64,000 nucleotides of DNA from an uncultured Chloroflexia bacterium. Lineage in GTDB: Bacteria > Chloroflexota > Anaerolineae > CG2-30-64-16. Position numbers and translations under genes: made by a program. The DNA lies in assembly GCA_963774265.1 (NCBI GenBank), contig CAVZDU010000010.1:96001-160000 (forward strand). The letters are read 5' to 3'. This document shows positions 25,026 through 34,838 of the stretch, in pieces. Position 1 is the stretch's first letter; each line of letters starts with the position of its first letter. The notes under the pieces were generated by a model that was not told where the DNA came from, made no database searches, and saw only the letters and a program-made list of their open reading frames with translations.

Positions 25026-26331
25026 TCAATTAGAAGGAAGAAGGGAAAAGGAAGAAGCAAGATCTTCCATTTTTCTTTTTTCTTCTTCCGTTTTTCGTAC
25101 GGGCGCCAGCGCCTCCGCCAGTGCGGCGACAACCCTCTCCAGGTCTTCTTCCCCGATCACCAGCGGAGGCAGCAACCGCAAGACCGTCATCCCGGCCGGC
25201 AGCGCCAGCACCCCCAGGGCCTGCAGTCGCTGCAACACAGGGGTCACCTTTACCTTCAACTCCACGCCGACCATCAGCCCCAACCCGCGCACCTCGCGCA
25301 CGAGCGGCACACGGAGCGCCGCGAATCTCGTCCATCAGGTGTTCGCCCAACCGCGCTGCCCGACCTGGCAACGTTTCGCCCGACCCTGGGGCCGGGTATT
25401 CGCTTGTCAGTGCATCCAATGCGGCCAGTGCGGCCGCGCACGCCAGCGGATTCCCGCCGAAGGTGCTGCCGTGGCTCATCGGCGCCAGAGTGCCCACGCG
25501 CGGCCCGATCATGCACGCGCCCATCGGTAGGCCGCCCGCCATTGATTTCGCGACGCAGAGCAAGTCCGGGACCACGTCGAAATGCTCGCACGCGAATAAC
25601 CGCCCCGTCCGCCCGAATCCCGTTTGCACCTCGTCCAGGACGAGCAGCGCCCCGCGTTGCCGGCATAGTTCTGCCGCCGTTTGCAGATACTCCCGCCGCG
25701 CAACATGCACGCCGCCCTCGCCTTGCACCGGCTCCAGCAAAACGGCAGCCGTTTCAGCCGTCACAGCCGCCTCCAGGGCGGAGAGATCGTTGAACGGAAC
25801 GTGGCTGAAACCCGGAGTGAGCGGTGCAAAAGGCCGCCGGTACTCCTCTTTCCACGTGGCCGACAGCGCGCCCATCGTTCTCCCGTGGAACCCGCGGTTT
25901 GCCGCTATGATCCCGGGCCGGCCAGTCGAAGCCCGCGCGAATTTGATCGCTGCCTCGACCGCCTCGGTCCCCGAATTGCACAGGAAGGTTCGGTCCAATC
26001 CTGGCGGTGCGACCTGCGCCAGCCGGTGCAGCAAGGCCACGCGCACGTCGTTATGAAAGGTTTCCGGGCAGGTGATGAGTTGGCCGGCCTGTTCGGTGAT
26101 CGCGGCCACGACCGCGGGGTGACAATGGCCCAGGTTTGCCGAACCCTGCCCTGCCACGCAGTCGATGTACTCGCGCCCTTCGGCATCCCATACGTGCGCG
26201 CCCTGTCCGCGCACGATGGCCACCTGGCGCTTCGGATACACGCCGGAGGTGTGGCTGGCCTCGGTCTGGATGATCTCCGCTTGACTCCAAACGACCTCGC
26301 TGGTTTGTGCGAAAGTCTGTGCGAGCATCAT
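25026..26331 (-). CDS. lysJ: [LysW]-aminoadipate semialdehyde transaminase; frameshifted near 25323
   Basis: [36 protein letters not shown] and HGSTFGGNP motifs. The C-terminus (VRGLGLM...RLLPPL) is in another frame; removing one base gives [14 protein letters not shown]. Confidence 0.88.
25035..25090. repeat. abutting inverted heptamer arrays (4+4) at the lysJ/hcs junction
   Basis: aggaaga|agggaaa|aggaaga|agcaaga then tcttcca|tttttct|tttttct|tcttccg. Confidence 0.75.
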
Positions 26332-28265: not shown

Positions 28266-29116
28266 TCTGAACCCTCCACCATCCTCAGTACATACCGCAC
28301 CACGTGGGCGGGGATATCCACGCCAGTCGTGTGGATGCTGTTGCGGAACTCCATCGTATGGTTAATCTCATTCACCAGGAATCCTCGCTGCGGGTCTTCC
28401 AGTACATCGATCGCCAGGACGCCCCCGCCCACAGCTTGCGCCGCGTCCCGACACAAAGCATCCAGTTCGGGCGTTACCGGGCAATTGCTCGCCTCGCCGC
28501 CTTTCGCCGTGTTTGTGATCCAGTGTGAAGACGCCCGGTAGATTGCACAGATCGTCTCGTCACCCACCACAAACGCCCGGATGTCCCGGCCGGGCTTGGC
28601 GATGTACTCCTGGATGTAGAAAATGCTGTGCTGGTACGACCCGAGGACGTCCTTATGCTCCAGCACGGCCTCAGCTGCGTCGCGATCGTTGATTCGCGCC
28701 AGCAGCCGTCCCCACGAGCCGACCACCGGTTTCAGCACCACGGGGTAGCCCATTTCCTCGATGGCCTGGATCGCCGATTCTGGCGTGAATGCCACGCGCG
28801 TCTCCGGCTGCGGCACCACGGCCTGGGCCAGCGCCGCGGTCGTCAACAGCTTGTCCCAGCAGGTGGCCGCGGTCTCGTAGCGGTTTACCGTAGGGATGCC
28901 CGCTGCGCCGAGCAACCGCAGCGCATAGATGCCACGTGCTGCGCTCAGCGAGCGTTCCAGCACCACGTCGGCCTGCACAGCACGGGGACCCCCAGGTCTG
29001 AAGATCAGCTCCTCGTCATTGACCAGCGTCACATCCGCGCCGGCCGCCTCGAGCGCGGCCAACAGCAGCTTTTCTTCCACGCGGATGCGCGAGGCGATCA
29101 GGGCAACGCGCGTCAT
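28262..29116 (-). CDS. lysX: alpha-aminoadipate--LysW ligase (ATP-grasp)
   Basis: [31 protein letters not shown] and NEINHTMEF motifs. Confidence 0.92.
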
Positions 29117-29283
29117 TCTCCCCAATCCTCCTGTTCTTCAGGTGCAAGTTCGAGCGTCAGTGGATCGAGCGCAATCACTTCCAGATCAGCGCCGCACGCC
29201 GCGCACGGCACAATTTCGCCCTGCAGCGGATCACGCAGGACGACCGGGCCTTCACATTCAGGACAGAGTGCTTCGAGTACCAT
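29113..29283 (-). CDS. lysW: amino-group carrier protein LysW
   Basis: CPEC...CAAC zinc ribbon and the C-terminal EDWGE; GGAGG RBS. Confidence 0.95.
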
Positions 29284-29303
29284 GATTGAATCCTCCGAAT
29301 TTG

Positions 29304-29325
29304 GTAGGGGCGACGAGACGTCGCC
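29304..29325. repeat. GTAG-type REP-like hairpin
   Basis: GTAGG-GGCGACG-AGA-CGTCGCC, lying between attenuator 2 and the lysW RBS. Confidence 0.45.
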
Positions 29326-29336
29326 TGTTTCCACCT

Positions 29337-29374
29337 AACAAAAAGCCCCCTCCGCCAACCGGGCGGAGGGGGCT
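29337..29374 (-). terminator. attenuator terminator 2
   Basis: Minus strand AGCCCCCTCCGCC-cggtt-GGCGGAGGGGGCT-TTTTGTT. Confidence 0.9.
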
Positions 29375-29404
29375 GCAAACGACTTAGGGGTGCGCGCAAG
29401 CGGC

Positions 29405-29470
29405 CTATCCAGACCTCCAGTCCGGCAAGCTGATCATCTTCTTGACCGTGCGCTTTGTCTTGAGCAGCAT
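29405..29470 (-). CDS. Lys-rich leader peptide 2 (MLLKTKRTVKKMISLPDWRSG)
   Basis: GAGGAG RBS; four AAG codons within codons 4-11; followed by a terminator. Translated by hand. Confidence 0.85.
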   Translation of the reverse strand: MLLKTKRTVKKMISLPDWRSG

Positions 29471-29485
29471 GTGTTTCTCCTCGGC

Positions 29486-29524
29486 AAACAAAAAGCCCCG
29501 CCTGGCGTTGGCCTGGCAGGGCTT
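29486..29524 (-). terminator. attenuator terminator 1
   Basis: Minus strand AAGCCCTGCCAGGC-caac-GCCAGGCGGGGCTT-TTTGTTT. Confidence 0.8.
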
Positions 29525-29549
29525 CTGGTTCTTTAGGGTTCTGTCTGGA

Positions 29550-29627
29550 CTACCCCAAGCGCCAGTGGCCGTCCCTGCAGGCCAGGGAAAGCTTCTTGGA
29601 CTTGGAGCGCTTGGACAGAGTCATCAT
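29550..29627 (-). CDS. Lys-rich leader peptide 1 (MMTLSKRSKSKKLSLACRDGHWRLG)
   Basis: GGAG RBS; four AAG codons within codons 6-12; directly downstream of the promoter. Translated by hand. Confidence 0.8.
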   Translation of the reverse strand: MMTLSKRSKSKKLSLACRDGHWRLG

Positions 29628-29643
29628 GTGAGCTTGTTCTCCG

Positions 29644-31672
29644 TTACGATGGCGGCATTATACCGGCATCTCTCAGTAAGTCAAATCGCGAATAGGCGGG
29701 AAGGCGTTGCGCCACCAGGGCGATCAGCGTATCTCTGTAGCGAACCCCTTGCTCCCATTGCATGCCCGGCGACGTAGTCCGGCGCTCCAACTCATTGCGT
29801 CCGAAGATCGCGCTCGACACTCAGGCCCAAATCCTGGAGCAACCCGGCCAGTAAGTCGGCCGCAGCATTCATCTGCGCTTCCGTCGGCGCGGCCAGATCA
29901 AAATCCCCCGCGAGCGCCACTGCCACCCCATCTGCATCCACCGCAGCCAGCCGGGATTGGTTGACCCTCGCTTCAAGCCCCTGCGTCTGGTATGTCATTC
30001 CGTTGCCGGCGATCAGGTAGTGGTAGGCGATGCCCGTTCGACCACGCCTGATCTGCCGTCGGGCCAGCTGGGCAGGCGTCACATCTGCGGGTGTCGCAGT
30101 GTGGTGGATGATGATGCGGCGGATGTCACTCAGGGGCCGTTTTGGAGCGACTTTCGTCGCCAGCCGATCCATCTCCTCGCGAACATCCTGCAGGGTAGTG
30201 GCTTCGAATTCCCGCTCGATCGCCACTGACTCCACGCCGCCACCGGTCTCGGTTTCGAGGTTGTTGGCCTGCACCAACACCTGTGCTACCGCCTGTTTCG
30301 CCTTCGCCGCCTCGGCCCTCCGCCCTTCCAGCGATGCCAAACGTCCCTGTGCGCTGGCGATGTTCGCGCGTAGCGCATCCAGACCCTGAACCGTCGCCAG
30401 CAGGATGGTAACCTGTTGACGTAACGCAGAGATCTGGTTGCGCACCTGGGCCGCGTCGACGTTCGTCCCGGGCGACGGGTCGTTCAGCGCGGTCTCCAAC
30501 CCCAGCAGCCGGTCGAGCAGGCCTCGAACCTCCTGTGCCGTCGGTCCTGGCGCGGCAGTCTGGCCCGCGGCTGCCAGAGCGGCGCGCGCCTTCTGCAAAT
30601 CGCCGGTAAATGCGTCTGCCTGGCCGGCGGCCGTTCTCATTGCCGCCTGCACTGCAGCCACCCGGGCCCGCAGGTCTGTCTGTGGGTCTGAGGATGTCGG
30701 CGTGGGCAGCGGGGTCGGGGACGGCGTGCTTGACTCGCGCAGCGTTGCGATCTTGTCTATCAACAGGATTGGCTTTTGATCGTTGTCCTTCCCCAGGTGA
30801 CGGAACGTCTCCCACAACCCCGAGTGGCCCACCTGGTACAGGCACGCGCCCATCAGGTAGTCATCTACTGTCATCTGTGCGTTGTACCACTGCAGCGACT
30901 CCCAATACTGGGTCTCGGAGATGGCCTCTCCCGGGTATAACCAACCCACATCACCCGCCGGGTCGTTAGAATGGCGATACATGCGTGCCAGGCCAGCTTC
31001 TGTGATGATCACCTTGTGTTTGTTTCCGTGGCGTTCCCGGATGCCCTCGAGCAGGGTGCGATATAGCAGTGCGGCTGTGGCCGTCTCTGCCTTGGACATG
31101 AGCGTCGGCCACCCGTACTCGTGGAAGCCCAGGTAGGTGTAGGCCGCGAGGGAGCGAGGGAAATGGGCGACGACCTGATCTTTCGCGACGAAGTTGCCGG
31201 CCGCGAAGTTGAATGCCACACCCTCCAGGCCATCCGATCGCATCCGTTCGAGGAATGCGACTTGAAAGCGATCGAGCGCATCGTAGCGCGCCAGCGTTTC
31301 GGCGTCCGGCTTCCAGTCAAGAAAGCTTGCCGGCCCCCTGACTGGCTCATTCAGACTCATCCACGCGTCAATCAGCAGCCGGCCGTTGGCGCCCTTCTCC
31401 TTGGCGAGCTGGAAGTCGTGGTTGATGACGTTCTCGGCCAGTGTGCGGCCTGCGCCTTCCGGGTCGCCGCCGGTCAACCAGGCCGTCTGCTGGGGCAGGT
31501 CAACAAACATACGGCCAATAACGAAAGTGTCGGGCGAAAGCGTATTGCGGATATCACGCAGTAATCCCCGATCCCCCACATGGATGAGCAGCACCGGCGG
31601 CTTAACCTTGGCGAACGCTTCGCGCAGGAATTGGACGGTCGTGTTTTCGACATAGAATCCCAGCTTATTCAC
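29644..31672 (-). CDS. GH-A-like domain + coiled coil + Amidase_2-like domain protein; frameshift near 29812
   Basis: GTG start VNKLGFY; SLNEP, FHEYG and ITEAG motifs; IIIHHT...YHYLI amidase fold. Removing one base near 29812 restores AIFGRNELERRTTSPGMQW, homologous to the upstream paralog. The 3' end is uncertain. Confidence 0.75.
29657..29684 (-). promoter_or_regulatory. sigma70-type promoter of the lysine operon
   Basis: Minus strand TTGACT-16nt-TATAAT, about 30 nt upstream of leader 1. Confidence 0.75.
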
Positions 31673-34600
31673 GGACCTCACCCCTTTCTGCGCTCGGCTC
31701 CGGCACGAAAACCTTCGGCGGCGCTCCGTCACCCCCCGGCATCTGCCCGGGACCCCACATCTGCTCCCGTAGTGATGCTGAGTGGGAGGTGCTGGGTCCT
31801 CCTTCTTCCTTTTCCCTTCTTCCCTTATCATCGGGCGTCTGCCAGTCCTCAGGCATCGTCCATTCATCCGGGAAGATAACCTCATCTAGCCCTTCGTAGA
31901 CCTCAAGGATCTCTTTCGGCGCCATGCTCGCGGGCTGGGCCGGCGCACCGGGCCACGGAGTGCCCTTCGCTGCCAGTTCATCGAGCATGCGCTTCGTATC
32001 CTCCTCATCCTTGCCCTCCAGCCGGTATACATCGATGCCCGCCGCACTCAGACGCGCCTCGTCCTGGCCCGACACGCCTGCTGTCCCACCGACGATCACG
32101 ACATGTTCTGCCAGAAACGCATCGCTAAGGGCGAAGCCCGCCGTTGGACGGAAGCGGGCAATGTAGCCCTGTGCGCTACGCCAATCTGCCTCAGCCCACG
32201 CATCGCCGTGATCCCAGAACAGCAGATACAGTTCCTTTCGCTGCCCGATGCCCCCAGTCCCGGCTGCTGTCTGCGCCGATTTCACTTCTTCGAGCAATTG
32301 GGGATGCCAGGTAAGGCCCGTCTTCCAGTGCTCGCCCGGACACACAGTCGCCTGAGGCCAGACGTCCCGATGTCCCTTGATCTGCTCGATCGGGATCTGG
32401 TACTCCTGCATCAACCAGGCAGCCAGTTGTCCCGCGCTCCGCAACTGTTGCGGCGTAGGAACTTGATCCTCGGGTGCGCGGTCCGTGCCATCGTAGTTCT
32501 TTCGCATGAACCGGCCGATCAGGCTGATGGCGACCGAATAATCATTCGGATCGCCACCCACGTGGTAAGAGCGGGTCGTTTCGCGCTGTCCCTGGTAGAT
32601 CACGCCATCCGGGCCGACCATGAAGTGATAGCCCACACCGGGCCATTGCGCCTTGACGATGTTGCCGCTTGCGTCCTTCCGCTCACCATAGACATGATAT
32701 TCGGCGATCTTCTGCACCATCATCGTCTTGGGAGTGTCTGTGTGATGGATCACGATCATCGAAATGGGCCGTGTGCGTGCGCCGTAGGGCGGCAGTGTGG
32801 GATGCTGGGGCAGTTTGTCGACCATGTCCACGATGGCCGGCCTGGCCACCCGACCAGTCGTGTTGTCGGCCAGCAGCGCACGCAGGCGTTCGACCTCCGC
32901 CGTCTGGCTGGCAAGGGTCTGGTCCAGTTCGGAGATGTGGGTTTGAAGTGCCGCAACCTCGGCGACCTCTGCAGTCAGGCCAGGGGCCTGGCCATTCAAA
33001 GTCGCAATCTGCGCGTTGAGCGCGGCAACCTGTATCTCCAGCTCCGCGATTCGTTTCTGCAACTGCTCCGGCGCCGATTCATCCTTCGGCTTCAACAACA
33101 AGGCAACTTTTGCCAGCAGGCTGGTCTTGTACTGCGCGCCGCCGAGCCACTGATCGCCGGGCGATGCCGTGGTGTCGACCTCCCGCCGCCCAATTACGGC
33201 TTCTGTTGTCAGGCCGTACCTCTCCAGCAACTGTGCGACCAACCGGGCTGCGCTGGTCATCTGTGTATCGGTCGGAACAGCCGTGGTGAAATCTCCGGCC
33301 AGCGCAACGCCGACTGCCACACCGTTCACCGTCACAGCGTTGGTTTGTCCGGTGACGACGTCAAGCGCTTGCGTTTCAAATATCGTGCCGTCTGCTGCAA
33401 TCAGGTAGTGATAGGTGATCCCGGGAAGACCCCGCGCAACCATTGCCTGCGCCACTCTTTCAGGTGAGATATCGCCTGGCGTGACCGTATGGTGGATCAC
33501 GATACGTCGTATGACGGCTGGATCGCGACGGGGGTATGGCGTGCCGGTGCCGGCCGGCAGGTGACCGATCCTATCGACAATCTGAAGCCCGCTCGGTGCG
33601 GGTTGATGGCCCAGAAGACCCTCCAAATCCTTGATCTGGGCGCTTAGCGTCTCGAATTGGCTGCGCAGGTCAGCAGGCCTGGCGGCAATCGCCTGGGCGG
33701 AGTACCCTTCGGCCTCCTTTGTTAGCGCCGCGGCATCCCCGGCCACTTTCTTCAGCGCATCGAGGGTGGTTTTCTGGGCTGCTGTTGCCTGCTCTAGCTC
33801 AGTCACCCGGCGTGTCAAAGCGGCCCAGGGGGCTTCCGTCGCCGTCCATTGGTATCGTGGACCGAATGCCTGGCGGAAATCATCGATGACGCCCGCCTTG
33901 CCTTCGATGCCCCAGCGGTCATTGGGAACCTGAGGCCAACGATAGAGAAGCAGTGAGCGGATCTTCTGGGCGTTGGCTCGGTTCCACGCGTCGATCTCGG
34001 CATAGGCGGCGCGAACCCAGCCGGTGTTGGCGTTGTCCCACGCCTGATCCCCCTGATTGCTCTCCGTGATATAGACGGGCAGGCCGCGCATGGCCTGGGG
34101 AATCGCCGCCATGAAGTCCTGGTAGGCCCGGAAGTGATAGCGTAAATGTTTGAAGCGGGCATCCCCCATGCGCTCGTCAGATGTGATCAGCGCTGGCGCC
34201 CCGCCGTGAGTATAAGTGTGCAGTGTGATGCCATCCAGGTTGCCGGCGCCAATGGCGGTCAGGATATCCGTGAAGTACTTGACCCAGTCGCCGTTCGGGT
34301 TGGCAGGGTAGGTGAGCAGGATATTCCATGGCGCTGGTGCGCTGACGAGAACCTGGTCCTGGCCGTGGCCCGCCACGGCCCTAATCGCCGTGCGGCACTG
34401 CTTGTAGCACGAGGCGTAACGCGCCGGCGTGATCTCCTCGCCGCGCTTGTCGGGGCTGACCGGAGCCGGCCATCCCGGCCCCCAGTTCCACTCAGCCCCT
34501 GGCCACTCGATGGGGTGATTCGTCTCGTTACCGAGGATCCAGATGTGCGCGCCGTGTGAGGCCGCCACAAAGTTCGCACAGCGGCCGGCAAAGTCGGCAT

Positions 34601-34838
34601 AGTCGCGCTCGAAGGAGATCGTGCCCCCCGGGTTGTAGGCGTTGTTGAGGCGGACAATGACACCCAGGTCCCGATCCGAGAAACGCCTGTAGTCGGCGCC
34701 CGAACGGTCATTGGGGTCGTGCCCGATCGCCTCGGTCACCAGCACCCAACCGGGTGTGCCCACATCGAGCATAGTCTGCTCGCCGCCCGAATCGTGTAAA
34801 CCGTAGATAAACGGCGAGTCGCATAACGGACGAGGCAT
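31665..34838 (-). CDS. GH-A-like domain + two N-acetylmuramoyl-L-alanine amidase (Amidase_2) domains joined by coiled coils
   Basis: LGNETN, LHTY and YITE motifs; two IVIHHT...YH domains, the second with GHRD...CPG; a C-terminal VVIVGG...RLEG segment resembling cell-wall-binding repeat 2. Confidence 0.8.
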   Translation of the reverse strand: MPRPLCDSPFIYGLHDSGGEQTMLDVGTPGWVLVTEAIGHDPNDRSGADYRRFSDRDLGVIVRLNNAYNPGGTISFERDYADFAGRCANFVAASHGAHIWILGNETNHPIEWPGAEWNWGPGWPAPVSPDKRGEEITPARYASCYKQCRTAIRAVAGHGQDQVLVSAPAPWNILLTYPANPNGDWVKYFTDILTAIGAGNLDGITLHTYTHGGAPALITSDERMGDARFKHLRYHFRAYQDFMAAIPQAMRGLPVYITESNQGDQAWDNANTGWVRAAYAEIDAWNRANAQKIRSLLLYRWPQVPNDRWGIEGKAGVIDDFRQAFGPRYQWTATEAPWAALTRRVTELEQATAAQKTTLDALKKVAGDAAALTKEAEGYSAQAIAARPADLRSQFETLSAQIKDLEGLLGHQPAPSGLQIVDRIGHLPAGTGTPYPRRDPAVIRRIVIHHTVTPGDISPERVAQAMVARGLPGITYHYLIAADGTIFETQALDVVTGQTNAVTVNGVAVGVALAGDFTTAVPTDTQMTSAARLVAQLLERYGLTTEAVIGRREVDTTASPGDQWLGGAQYKTSLLAKVALLLKPKDESAPEQLQKRIAELEIQVAALNAQIATLNGQAPGLTAEVAEVAALQTHISELDQTLASQTAEVERLRALLADNTTGRVARPAIVDMVDKLPQHPTLPPYGARTRPISMIVIHHTDTPKTMMVQKIAEYHVYGERKDASGNIVKAQWPGVGYHFMVGPDGVIYQGQRETTRSYHVGGDPNDYSVAISLIGRFMRKNYDGTDRAPEDQVPTPQQLRSAGQLAAWLMQEYQIPIEQIKGHRDVWPQATVCPGEHWKTGLTWHPQLLEEVKSAQTAAGTGGIGQRKELYLLFWDHGDAWAEADWRSAQGYIARFRPTAGFALSDAFLAEHVVIVGGTAGVSGQDEARLSAAGIDVYRLEGKDEEDTKRMLDELAAKGTPWPGAPAQPASMAPKEILEVYEGLDEVIFPDEWTMPEDWQTPDDKGRREKEEGGPSTSHSASLREQMWGPGQMPGGDGAPPKVFVPEPSAERGEVRE
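31797..31824. repeat. heptamer tandem array inside the 3' end of the amidase gene
   Basis: tcctcct|tcttcct|tttccct|tcttccc. Confidence 0.55.

Follow-up and report, generated by a model that had tools for sequence, protein, structure and literature searches.

How is transcription into a lysine-biosynthesis operon controlled when its leader carries two short lysine-rich open reading frames (ORFs), each followed by an intrinsic terminator? The question is raised by a 64,000-nucleotide stretch of contig CAVZDU010000010.1 from an uncultured Chloroflexia bacterium, called the window throughout this text. On its minus strand one sigma-70-like promoter is followed in order by leader ORF 1, terminator 1 (T1), leader ORF 2, terminator 2 (T2) and the genes lysW-lysX-lysY-lysZ-lysJ-hcs. 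We propose that behind this single promoter lie two complete ribosome-mediated attenuators of the trp type, arranged in series ahead of lysWXYZJ-hcs and tuned to lysyl-tRNA, and we put the probability of this reading at about three in four. A first-pass annotation made from the letters alone had likewise read this arrangement as two leader-peptide attenuators with Lys codons, placed one after the other on a single transcript that leads into lysW. All elements that it named are present at the minus-strand positions it gave, and this core reading is supported by conservation, by lysine specificity and by covariation, as described below. The operon would probably be switched on only when lysine is short.

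Organization of the leader region

Attenuation, in the passages of PMC3641672 that set out the principle, combines a leader ORF containing codons for the end product, a terminator and a mutually exclusive antiterminator, with the position of the ribosome serving as the sensor. Both ORFs of the window are short and possess a start codon and a ribosome-binding site (RBS), and are predicted to be translated. Each contains a cluster of four AAG codons for lysine, the end product of the pathway, and an intrinsic terminator is located between each ORF and the structural genes (Table 1). T1 is overlooked by a simple terminator scanner because its stem contains an internal mismatch.

The promoter, TTGACT-16-TATAAT, matches the consensus at 11 of 12 positions and is the sole promoter-like site within 29000-30000, where 0.2 such sites are expected. 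Transcription is predicted to start around 29650, giving a leader transcript of ∼370 nt. An independent promoter between the two modules had been named at the first pass among the observations that would speak against control in series, and the scan of 29000-30000 finds no promoter-like site between module 1 and module 2. The two modules are closely packed in the window: only ∼6 nt separate the end of the T1 U tract (29486) from the RBS of leader 2.

The region was also compared with known regulatory RNAs. When positions 28800-30200 are compared with the Rfam covariance models none reaches its gathering score, the top model being NsiR1 with 27.9 bits against a cutoff of 39, and the region is accordingly not assigned to the lysine riboswitch, the T-box or any other Rfam cis-regulatory family. 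The predicted products of leader ORFs 1 and 2 match no Pfam or NCBIfam family.

Conservation and lysine specificity

The leader was compared among 20 loci fetched from the same family, 19 of which provide the sequences for the codon and pairing alignments of leader 1. At the DNA level the 417-nt leader region matches 22 of 24 other genomes of this family and none of 16 genomes drawn from 16 other families of the class. All 20 loci have lysW after the leader region and two terminator hairpins between promoter and lysW, with one additional terminator-like hairpin in this interval in L005 and L012. In the family alignment the promoter hexamers, both ORFs and both terminators are in register, and TTGACA-N17-TATAAT aligns at the promoter position in those loci for which upstream sequence is available. 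Two modules, each consisting of a K-rich ORF plus a terminator, are recognized in 17 of the 20 loci if ATG, GTG or TTG starts are allowed; leader ORF 2 retains 3-4 Lys codons, a strong RBS and its ATG in 17 of 20. No change is seen in the four Lys codons of leader 1 across the 19 sequences, and the Ser codon in their midst varies synonymously between TCC, TCG and TCA.

The enrichment ahead of both terminators is specific to lysine. In 26 of 90 loci two or more terminators each follow a K-rich ORF, a count that reflects conservation and not 26 separate events, as related genomes are not independent. Serine is the runner-up with seven loci, which stem from the same ORFs, and the antisense-strand control gives two K-rich modules in none of the 90. 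Within the genome of the window, 34 of 1,280 terminator-like sites come after a loosely defined K-rich short ORF and most of these ORFs look like the C-terminal ends of genuine genes. Two such sites stand next to each other in this genome only in the lysW leader.

For a wider sample, a scan based on LysX with one genome per species yielded 80 loci, almost all from genomes titled as Chloroflexota metagenome-assembled genomes. lysW could be located in 72 of these, and removal of two duplicates left 70 distant loci. Two modules are present in nine of the 70 by the strict call and in 11 with a relaxed terminator threshold, which adds L074 and L078. Single convincing modules stand ahead of lysW in L029 and L034 (module 2-like only) and in L089 (module 1-like only). 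The comparison of one versus two modules upstream of Chloroflexota lysW that had been suggested at the first pass thus finds tandems both in the family and in distant lineages. L101, from a class-level genome, is a further tandem locus. It is one of two matches returned when 401 genomes of the phylum were scanned with a pattern built on a hallmark of module 2, which is too strict to gauge the distribution. The other match, L102, lacks leader or terminator context, looks like a chance match and was rejected as a tandem locus.

The distant leader peptides diverge widely; the parts that remain alike are the run of Lys residues and the final codons of leader 2. Lysine is kept while its codon alternates between AAG and AAA, and the AT-richer lineages use AAA where the window has AAG.

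Alternative RNA pairings

A predicted antiterminator pairing that would exclude the terminator is found for module 1, and for module 2 it is supported in the family and strongly so in the distant lineages; the copy of module 2 in the window itself is at chance level and is discussed further below. In the window, the duplex between leader 1 and the 5' arm of T1 has an energy of -24.4 kcal/mol, compared with -17.6 +/- 2.8 for shuffled sequences, of which 8 of 500 are as good. The module 1 antiterminator of the window thus exceeds chance. The same single-sequence complementarity test gives negative z-scores for module 1 in all 20 family loci. Over the 19 aligned family sequences this antiterminator consists of 11 pairs and one bulge, with 99.5% of the cells paired and one compensatory pair. 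The third codon positions are invariant over the antiterminator stretch, which suggests that it is the RNA, not the peptide, that is constrained here.

Leader ORF 1 is longer in the family than in the distant lineages. Its CCAAG repeats pair with a segment just before the stop codon and thereby close a long hairpin (-29.8 kcal/mol in the window), the apex of which bears the strand complementary to the T1 5' arm. This hairpin is part of the RNAalifold consensus, with 86.8% of the cells paired and wobble changes only. Judging from the folding models, it possibly functions as an anti-antiterminator and as a pause hairpin.

The first-pass annotation had placed the module 2 antiterminator elsewhere than the pairing that is conserved in the family, in which leader segment GCCAGACUGG pairs with the apex of T2. 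The end of leader 2 folds as a hairpin (the leader 2 fold amounts to -24.5 kcal/mol in the window). Between the 5' arm of this hairpin and the T2 apex 84.7% of the cells are paired, an AU/GC exchange is seen in six sequences and 3 of 500 shuffles reach this level. The single-sequence test underrates this pairing, as it cuts T2 inside the very apex with which the antiterminator pairs.

The distant module 1 and module 2 sets contain ten sequences each. In distant module 1 two helices are seen. One joins the segment of the Lys codons to a U-rich stretch just past the stop codon (85.7% of cells paired, with compensation of one pair in three sequences), and the other joins the adjacent segment beside the stop codon to the 5' arm of T1 (98% paired, with compensation at two pairs). 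In distant module 2 a helix links the last codons and the stop codon to the T2 5' arm; 98.8% of its cells are paired and seven are doubly changed. None of 500 shuffles reaches this level, and slid controls remain at or below 45% paired. The T2 terminator itself is 98.1% paired in these sequences, again reached by 0 of 500 shuffles. One position of T2 covaries with its partners in both the antiterminator and the terminator, which is the pattern predicted for mutually exclusive helices. The test for stem covariation that was proposed at the first pass is thus answered in the distant lineages, where antiterminator and terminator pairings both covary. From their sequences, modules 1 and 2 of these lineages look like canonical trp-type attenuators.

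Ribosome position and proposed mechanism

The effect of a translating ribosome was modelled by folding the nascent RNA up to the terminator loop with a 28-nt footprint blocked at each A-site codon, using energy parameters for 37 C and no pseudoknots. For module 1, the T1 5' arm is sequestered in all 20 family loci (P ∼0.6-0.9) whenever the ribosome occupies one of the Lys codons. Once the ribosome covers codons 15-21, this arm is free (P ∼0.1-0.2) in about half of the 20 loci, the window included. For module 2, about 9 of 18 loci have a high antiterminator probability at the Lys codons and a low one over the final third of the ORF, stop codon included.

We propose the following mechanism. Each module would comprise a translated short ORF with 3-4 Lys codons, an intrinsic terminator and a leader segment able to pair with the terminator instead. 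When lysine is plentiful, the ribosome would pass through the leader and cover the antiterminator strand as the terminator emerges, so that the terminator forms. Transcription would then end at T1, or at T2 for those polymerases that escape T1. When lysyl-tRNA is scarce, the ribosome is expected to stall on the AAG codons upstream of the antiterminator strand. The freed strand could then capture the T1 5' arm in module 1 or the T2 apex in module 2, allowing read-through. As both checkpoints would have to be passed, overall read-through should approximate the product of the two probabilities, which would give less leak and a wider and steeper response.

Evidence against and alternative explanations

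Several observations weigh against this reading. No RNA run containing the stretch was found, the best shares of words being 0.17 or less. In full-length equilibrium folding both terminators form with P >=0.97 with the footprint at every codon, and any switching must therefore be kinetic. For module 1, no more than about half of the 20 loci show a clear blocked state when the ribosome covers codons 15-21. Moreover, a ribosome at the stop codon of leader 1 leaves the antiterminator unmasked and its predicted probability is high again, so that termination in lysine excess needs a timing argument. Such an argument can be made for the family module 1: the polymerase may pause at the long leader hairpin, just past the stop codon, until the ribosome melts the hairpin. 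Polymerase and ribosome would then advance ∼45 nt together, which would place the ribosome on codons 15-21 when the T1 5' arm appears. This pause-timing model fits the codon 15-21 interval obtained by modelling.

The remaining points concern the comparative evidence. Within the family there is little covariation, as the sequences hardly differ, and the related genomes are not independent. In the wider sample, 55 of the 70 distant lysW loci have no module by the criteria used. Absence of a module by this call does not mean that the operon has no leader farther upstream, since many of these loci have a same-strand ORF ending within ∼150 nt, although these are stop-to-stop ORFs, which are noisy in G+C-rich DNA. 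In 20 lysW loci lacking modules no Rfam family reaches its gathering score, and hence no alternative known riboswitch was recognized there.

Further objections concern module 2 of the window and lead to the view that here only module 1 senses lysine, module 2 being a relic or a partly constitutive or weak terminator that lowers operon output. The duplex of the window leader 2 with the T2 5' arm (-19.6 compared with -18.3 +/- 3.0) is equalled by 159 of 500 shuffles, so that the GGAGG/CCGG segments put forward as the module 2 antiterminator at the first pass do not stand out from chance. The modelled contrast is also small, with an antiterminator probability of ∼0.5-0.65 at the Lys codons of the window and ∼0.3 at the stop. 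The conserved pairing with the T2 apex is shorter in the genus of the window (L001-L008) than in the other genera. In addition, L012, L017 and L020 (three of the 20 family loci) retain module 1 and T2 while leader 2 is degenerate or gone: L017 and L020 have no leader 2 ORF, and in L012 an insertion between the modules carries its own terminator-like hairpin and leader 2 has just two Lys codons. We nevertheless judge a single sensor unlikely. A relic would not readily account for the strong RBS, the ATG and the Lys codons kept by leader ORF 2 in most family loci. Furthermore, module 2 is the better conserved of the two across lineages, where the profile of distant sequences finds its counterpart in the family (see below), and it shows the strongest covariation.

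Less probable still is that the two modules sense different inputs, for example Lys plus Ser in module 1 and Lys plus Arg or translation speed in module 2, with an integration resembling that of mgtCBR. Family leader 1 is indeed also Ser-rich (S-K-x-S-K-S-K-K), leader 2 keeps a K-R pair, and S and R are the next most enriched residues after K. This enrichment, however, stems from the same family ORFs, and in the distant lineages the two leaders share only Lys, with neither the Ser nor the Arg positions retained. That the elements are no attenuators at all, and instead encode functional small basic peptides or a T1-terminated small RNA of ∼165 nt with ordinary terminators, is very improbable: both peptides are well conserved towards their C-termini and attenuated leader RNAs or peptides can act in trans in some other bacteria (trpL, in the parts of PMC7298713 and PMC12612679 that deal with it), but conservation within the ORFs tracks RNA pairing, with invariant third positions at the antiterminator, a segment that covaries with the terminator, the elements always lie between promoter and lysW, and the peptides match no protein family.

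Origin and age of the tandem

Two lysine attenuators in series thus remain our preferred reading, and the next question is how old this arrangement is. The first-pass annotation had ascribed the two modules to an old duplication, citing among other motifs CCCTAA at 9 nt ahead of each stem and a common GGGGCTTTTTGTT, both of which are indeed found in the window modules. The motifs cited are, however, specific to the window, and neither the CCCTAA spacing nor cacATG is conserved among relatives. The similarity of the modules to each other, on the other hand, is real if modest. The window modules align collinearly with a score of 84, compared with 47.5 +/- 7.3 for shuffles, none of 300 scoring as high. 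The leader parts of the two modules are alike at z > 2 in 19 of 28 tandem loci. Part of this similarity corresponds to the shared Lys run and the composition of the terminators. Cross-hits between module 1 and module 2 profiles are weak overall, and there are none between the family and distant sets. A common origin of the two modules is plausible, with convergence on the same parts list as the alternative.

A profile of the distant module 2 sequences matches 12 of 18 family module 2 sequences. Since such matches are found while the two modules give no comparable cross-hits, module 2 appears to be the same element across lineages and the two-module order appears to be old. LysX is only ∼61-82% identical between lineages that share a recognizable module 2. 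We see an even chance that the tandem represents an old two-stage lysine sensor conserved in the Chloroflexota, in which two non-identical module types have kept their order, rather than a recent local duplication. In that event it would constitute the first natural example of leader-peptide attenuators for the same signal in series, acting as a kinetic AND gate on the charging of lysyl-tRNA with lower leak and an ultrasensitive response. Module 1 of the family would then have shifted to a timing-dependent design, in which the ribosome has to be on the antiterminator at the right moment.

The lysine operon and its surroundings

The coordinates of the leader elements and of the genes behind them are collected in Table 1. 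Judged by the Pfam and NCBIfam assignments of its genes, the regulated unit is the LysW-dependent alpha-aminoadipate pathway of lysine biosynthesis. The double leader offers an annotation signature for LysW-type lysine operons, consisting of two small ORFs that gene callers miss or call hypothetical.

Table 1. Features of the tandem leader and of the downstream operon (window coordinates)
Feature	Position	Strand	Description
sigma-70-like promoter	29684-29657	minus	-35 TTGACT 29684-29679, 16-nt spacer, -10 TATAAT 29662-29657
GGAG	29642-29639	minus	11 nt before leader 1
Leader ORF 1	29627-29550	minus	25 codons + stop, ATG start, 4 Lys codons, all AAG
Leader 1 AAG codons	29612-29610, 29603-29601, 29597-29595, 29594-29592	minus	
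Predicted antiterminator strand, module 1	29585-29572	minus	inside leader ORF 1, codons 15-19; complementary to T1 5' arm
Putative anti-antiterminator segment, leader 1	29562-29555	minus	just ahead of stop; pairs with CCAAG repeats of Lys-codon run
Intrinsic terminator T1	29523-29486	minus	stem 29523-29495, then U tract; RNAfold -21.7 to -23.1 kcal/mol
RBS GAGGAG	29482-29477	minus	6 nt before leader 2
Leader ORF 2	29470-29405	minus	21 codons + stop, ATG start, 4 Lys codons, all AAG
Leader 2 AAG codons	29461-29459, 29455-29453, 29443-29441, 29440-29438	minus	
Leader ORF 2 3'-end hairpin	29430-29408	minus	reaches stop codon; 5' arm is the candidate T2 antiterminator strand
Intrinsic terminator T2	29374-29337	minus	stem 29374-29344, then U tract; 13 pairs, 11 G-C; -28.8 to -30.2 kcal/mol
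lysW	29283-29113	minus	Pfam Zn_ribbon_LysW
lysX	29125-28262	minus	Pfam LysX
lysY (argC family)	28265-27213	minus	NCBIfam argC, 347.5 bits
lysZ	27200-26328	minus	NCBIfam [LysW]-aminoadipate kinase, 352.2 bits
lysJ	26331-25030	minus	LysJ-type transaminase; NCBIfam LysJ in two pieces, two frames
Homocitrate synthase (hcs)	25029-23842	minus	NCBIfam, 447.4 bits
Regulated operon as a whole	29283-23842	minus	lysWXYZJ-hcs

The lysJ gene is split on the minus strand. Positions 4-288 of the NCBIfam LysJ model match in the frame 26331-25420 and positions 318-386 in another frame at 25310-25029, and the long lysJ ORF terminates in a tail of low complexity that is out of frame. The split is due either to a frameshift or to an error in the assembly. 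Between lysJ and hcs, at ∼25035-25095, there is an imperfect hairpin with a purine-rich and a pyrimidine-rich arm. By eye, ∼22 nt of the pyrimidine arm appear again as the reverse complement ∼6.7 kb away at ∼31812-31835, so that the two copies flank lysJ-lysW, the leader and an ORF of 697 codons. A repeat search of the window for matches of at least 40 nt returned nothing relevant, and the ∼22-nt copies are not among its matches.

Upstream of the leader, the minus strand contains this 697-codon ORF (29792-31885) and one of 1057 codons (31665-34838). Their translations hold repeated segments that resemble each other, and the 697-codon product has no NCBIfam match at E <= 1e-5. In other members of the family the spacer between T2 and lysW varies: in L009, L011 and L014 it is filled by short tandem repeats that add 60-110 nt, with units of ∼8 nt in L009 and of AACC type in L011 and L014.

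Comparison with known systems

Leader-peptide attenuation is a textbook mechanism that is known almost entirely in the form of single units. A related system is the Lys leader-peptide attenuator of the Thermus thermophilus alpha-aminoadipate lysine cluster, which Tsubouchi et al. reportedly described in J Biol Chem in 2005 and which is said to be a single module in front of a different first gene. It would share with the leader described here the pathway, the Lys-codon signal and the kind of mechanism, and differ in phylum and in the number of modules. The attenuators of the trp and his type have the same parts list, and the distant-lineage modules follow their plan almost exactly. In contrast to them, two complete units for one amino acid are found here in series, and in the family module 1 the antiterminator lies inside the ORF, ∼20 nt before the stop codon, and is not masked by a ribosome at the stop codon.

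According to the relevant passages of PMC2965389, its authors knew leader-peptide systems only from Proteobacteria and Actinobacteria, to which they add the Firmicutes; the present tandem is from the Chloroflexota. The same source mentions that in some Gammaproteobacteria the rimP leader has two terminators in tandem. In the literature searched we found no description of lysW leaders, of leader-peptide attenuators in Chloroflexota or of leader-peptide tandems for the same signal, although the supplements of PMC2965389 and PMC4833913 may list predicted leaders.

The first-pass annotation knew of no described case of attenuators of this kind in series. This needs qualification, as tandem leader-ORF attenuators are on record in the Salmonella mgtCBR leader, the nearest precedent, albeit sensing two different signals. 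In the account given in passages of PMC3641672, two short ORFs, mgtM and mgtP, act through independent alternative stem-loops that govern transcription into the coding region, the signals are ATP and proline, the stem-loops are unlike intrinsic terminators, and the authors call the case singular. As far as that account goes, the present leader does not belong to the mgtCBR type, since both of its ORFs are rich in Lys codons and a canonical intrinsic terminator follows each of them. Two leader peptides upstream of one gene also occur in erm translational attenuation, where stalling remodels the RNA (in the part of PMC8274638 devoted to it). As described there, control is translational and stalling is induced by antibiotics, with neither intrinsic terminators nor amino-acid sensing, unlike the tandem found here.

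Among riboswitches, the leader of Bacillus clausii metE is an example of a tandem (mentioned in PMC3641672). Tandem riboswitches and tandem T-boxes likewise place complete sensor-terminator units in series, but their sensor is an aptamer or a tRNA-binding RNA and not a ribosome. Where both units sense the same ligand, as in tandem T-boxes, the response is considered to be sharper or larger. The double lysine leader would allow one to ask in a natural system what a second checkpoint gains, be it less leak, more dynamic range or a steeper response. The comparison set is provided by nature: the tandem loci, the single modules of either type and the three family members that lack a proper leader 2 but keep T2, with L029, L034 and L089 as useful natural controls for the contribution of the second module. 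Tandem riboswitches and tandem T-boxes would find their ribosome-sensing equivalent in a conserved tandem of two attenuators for the same signal.

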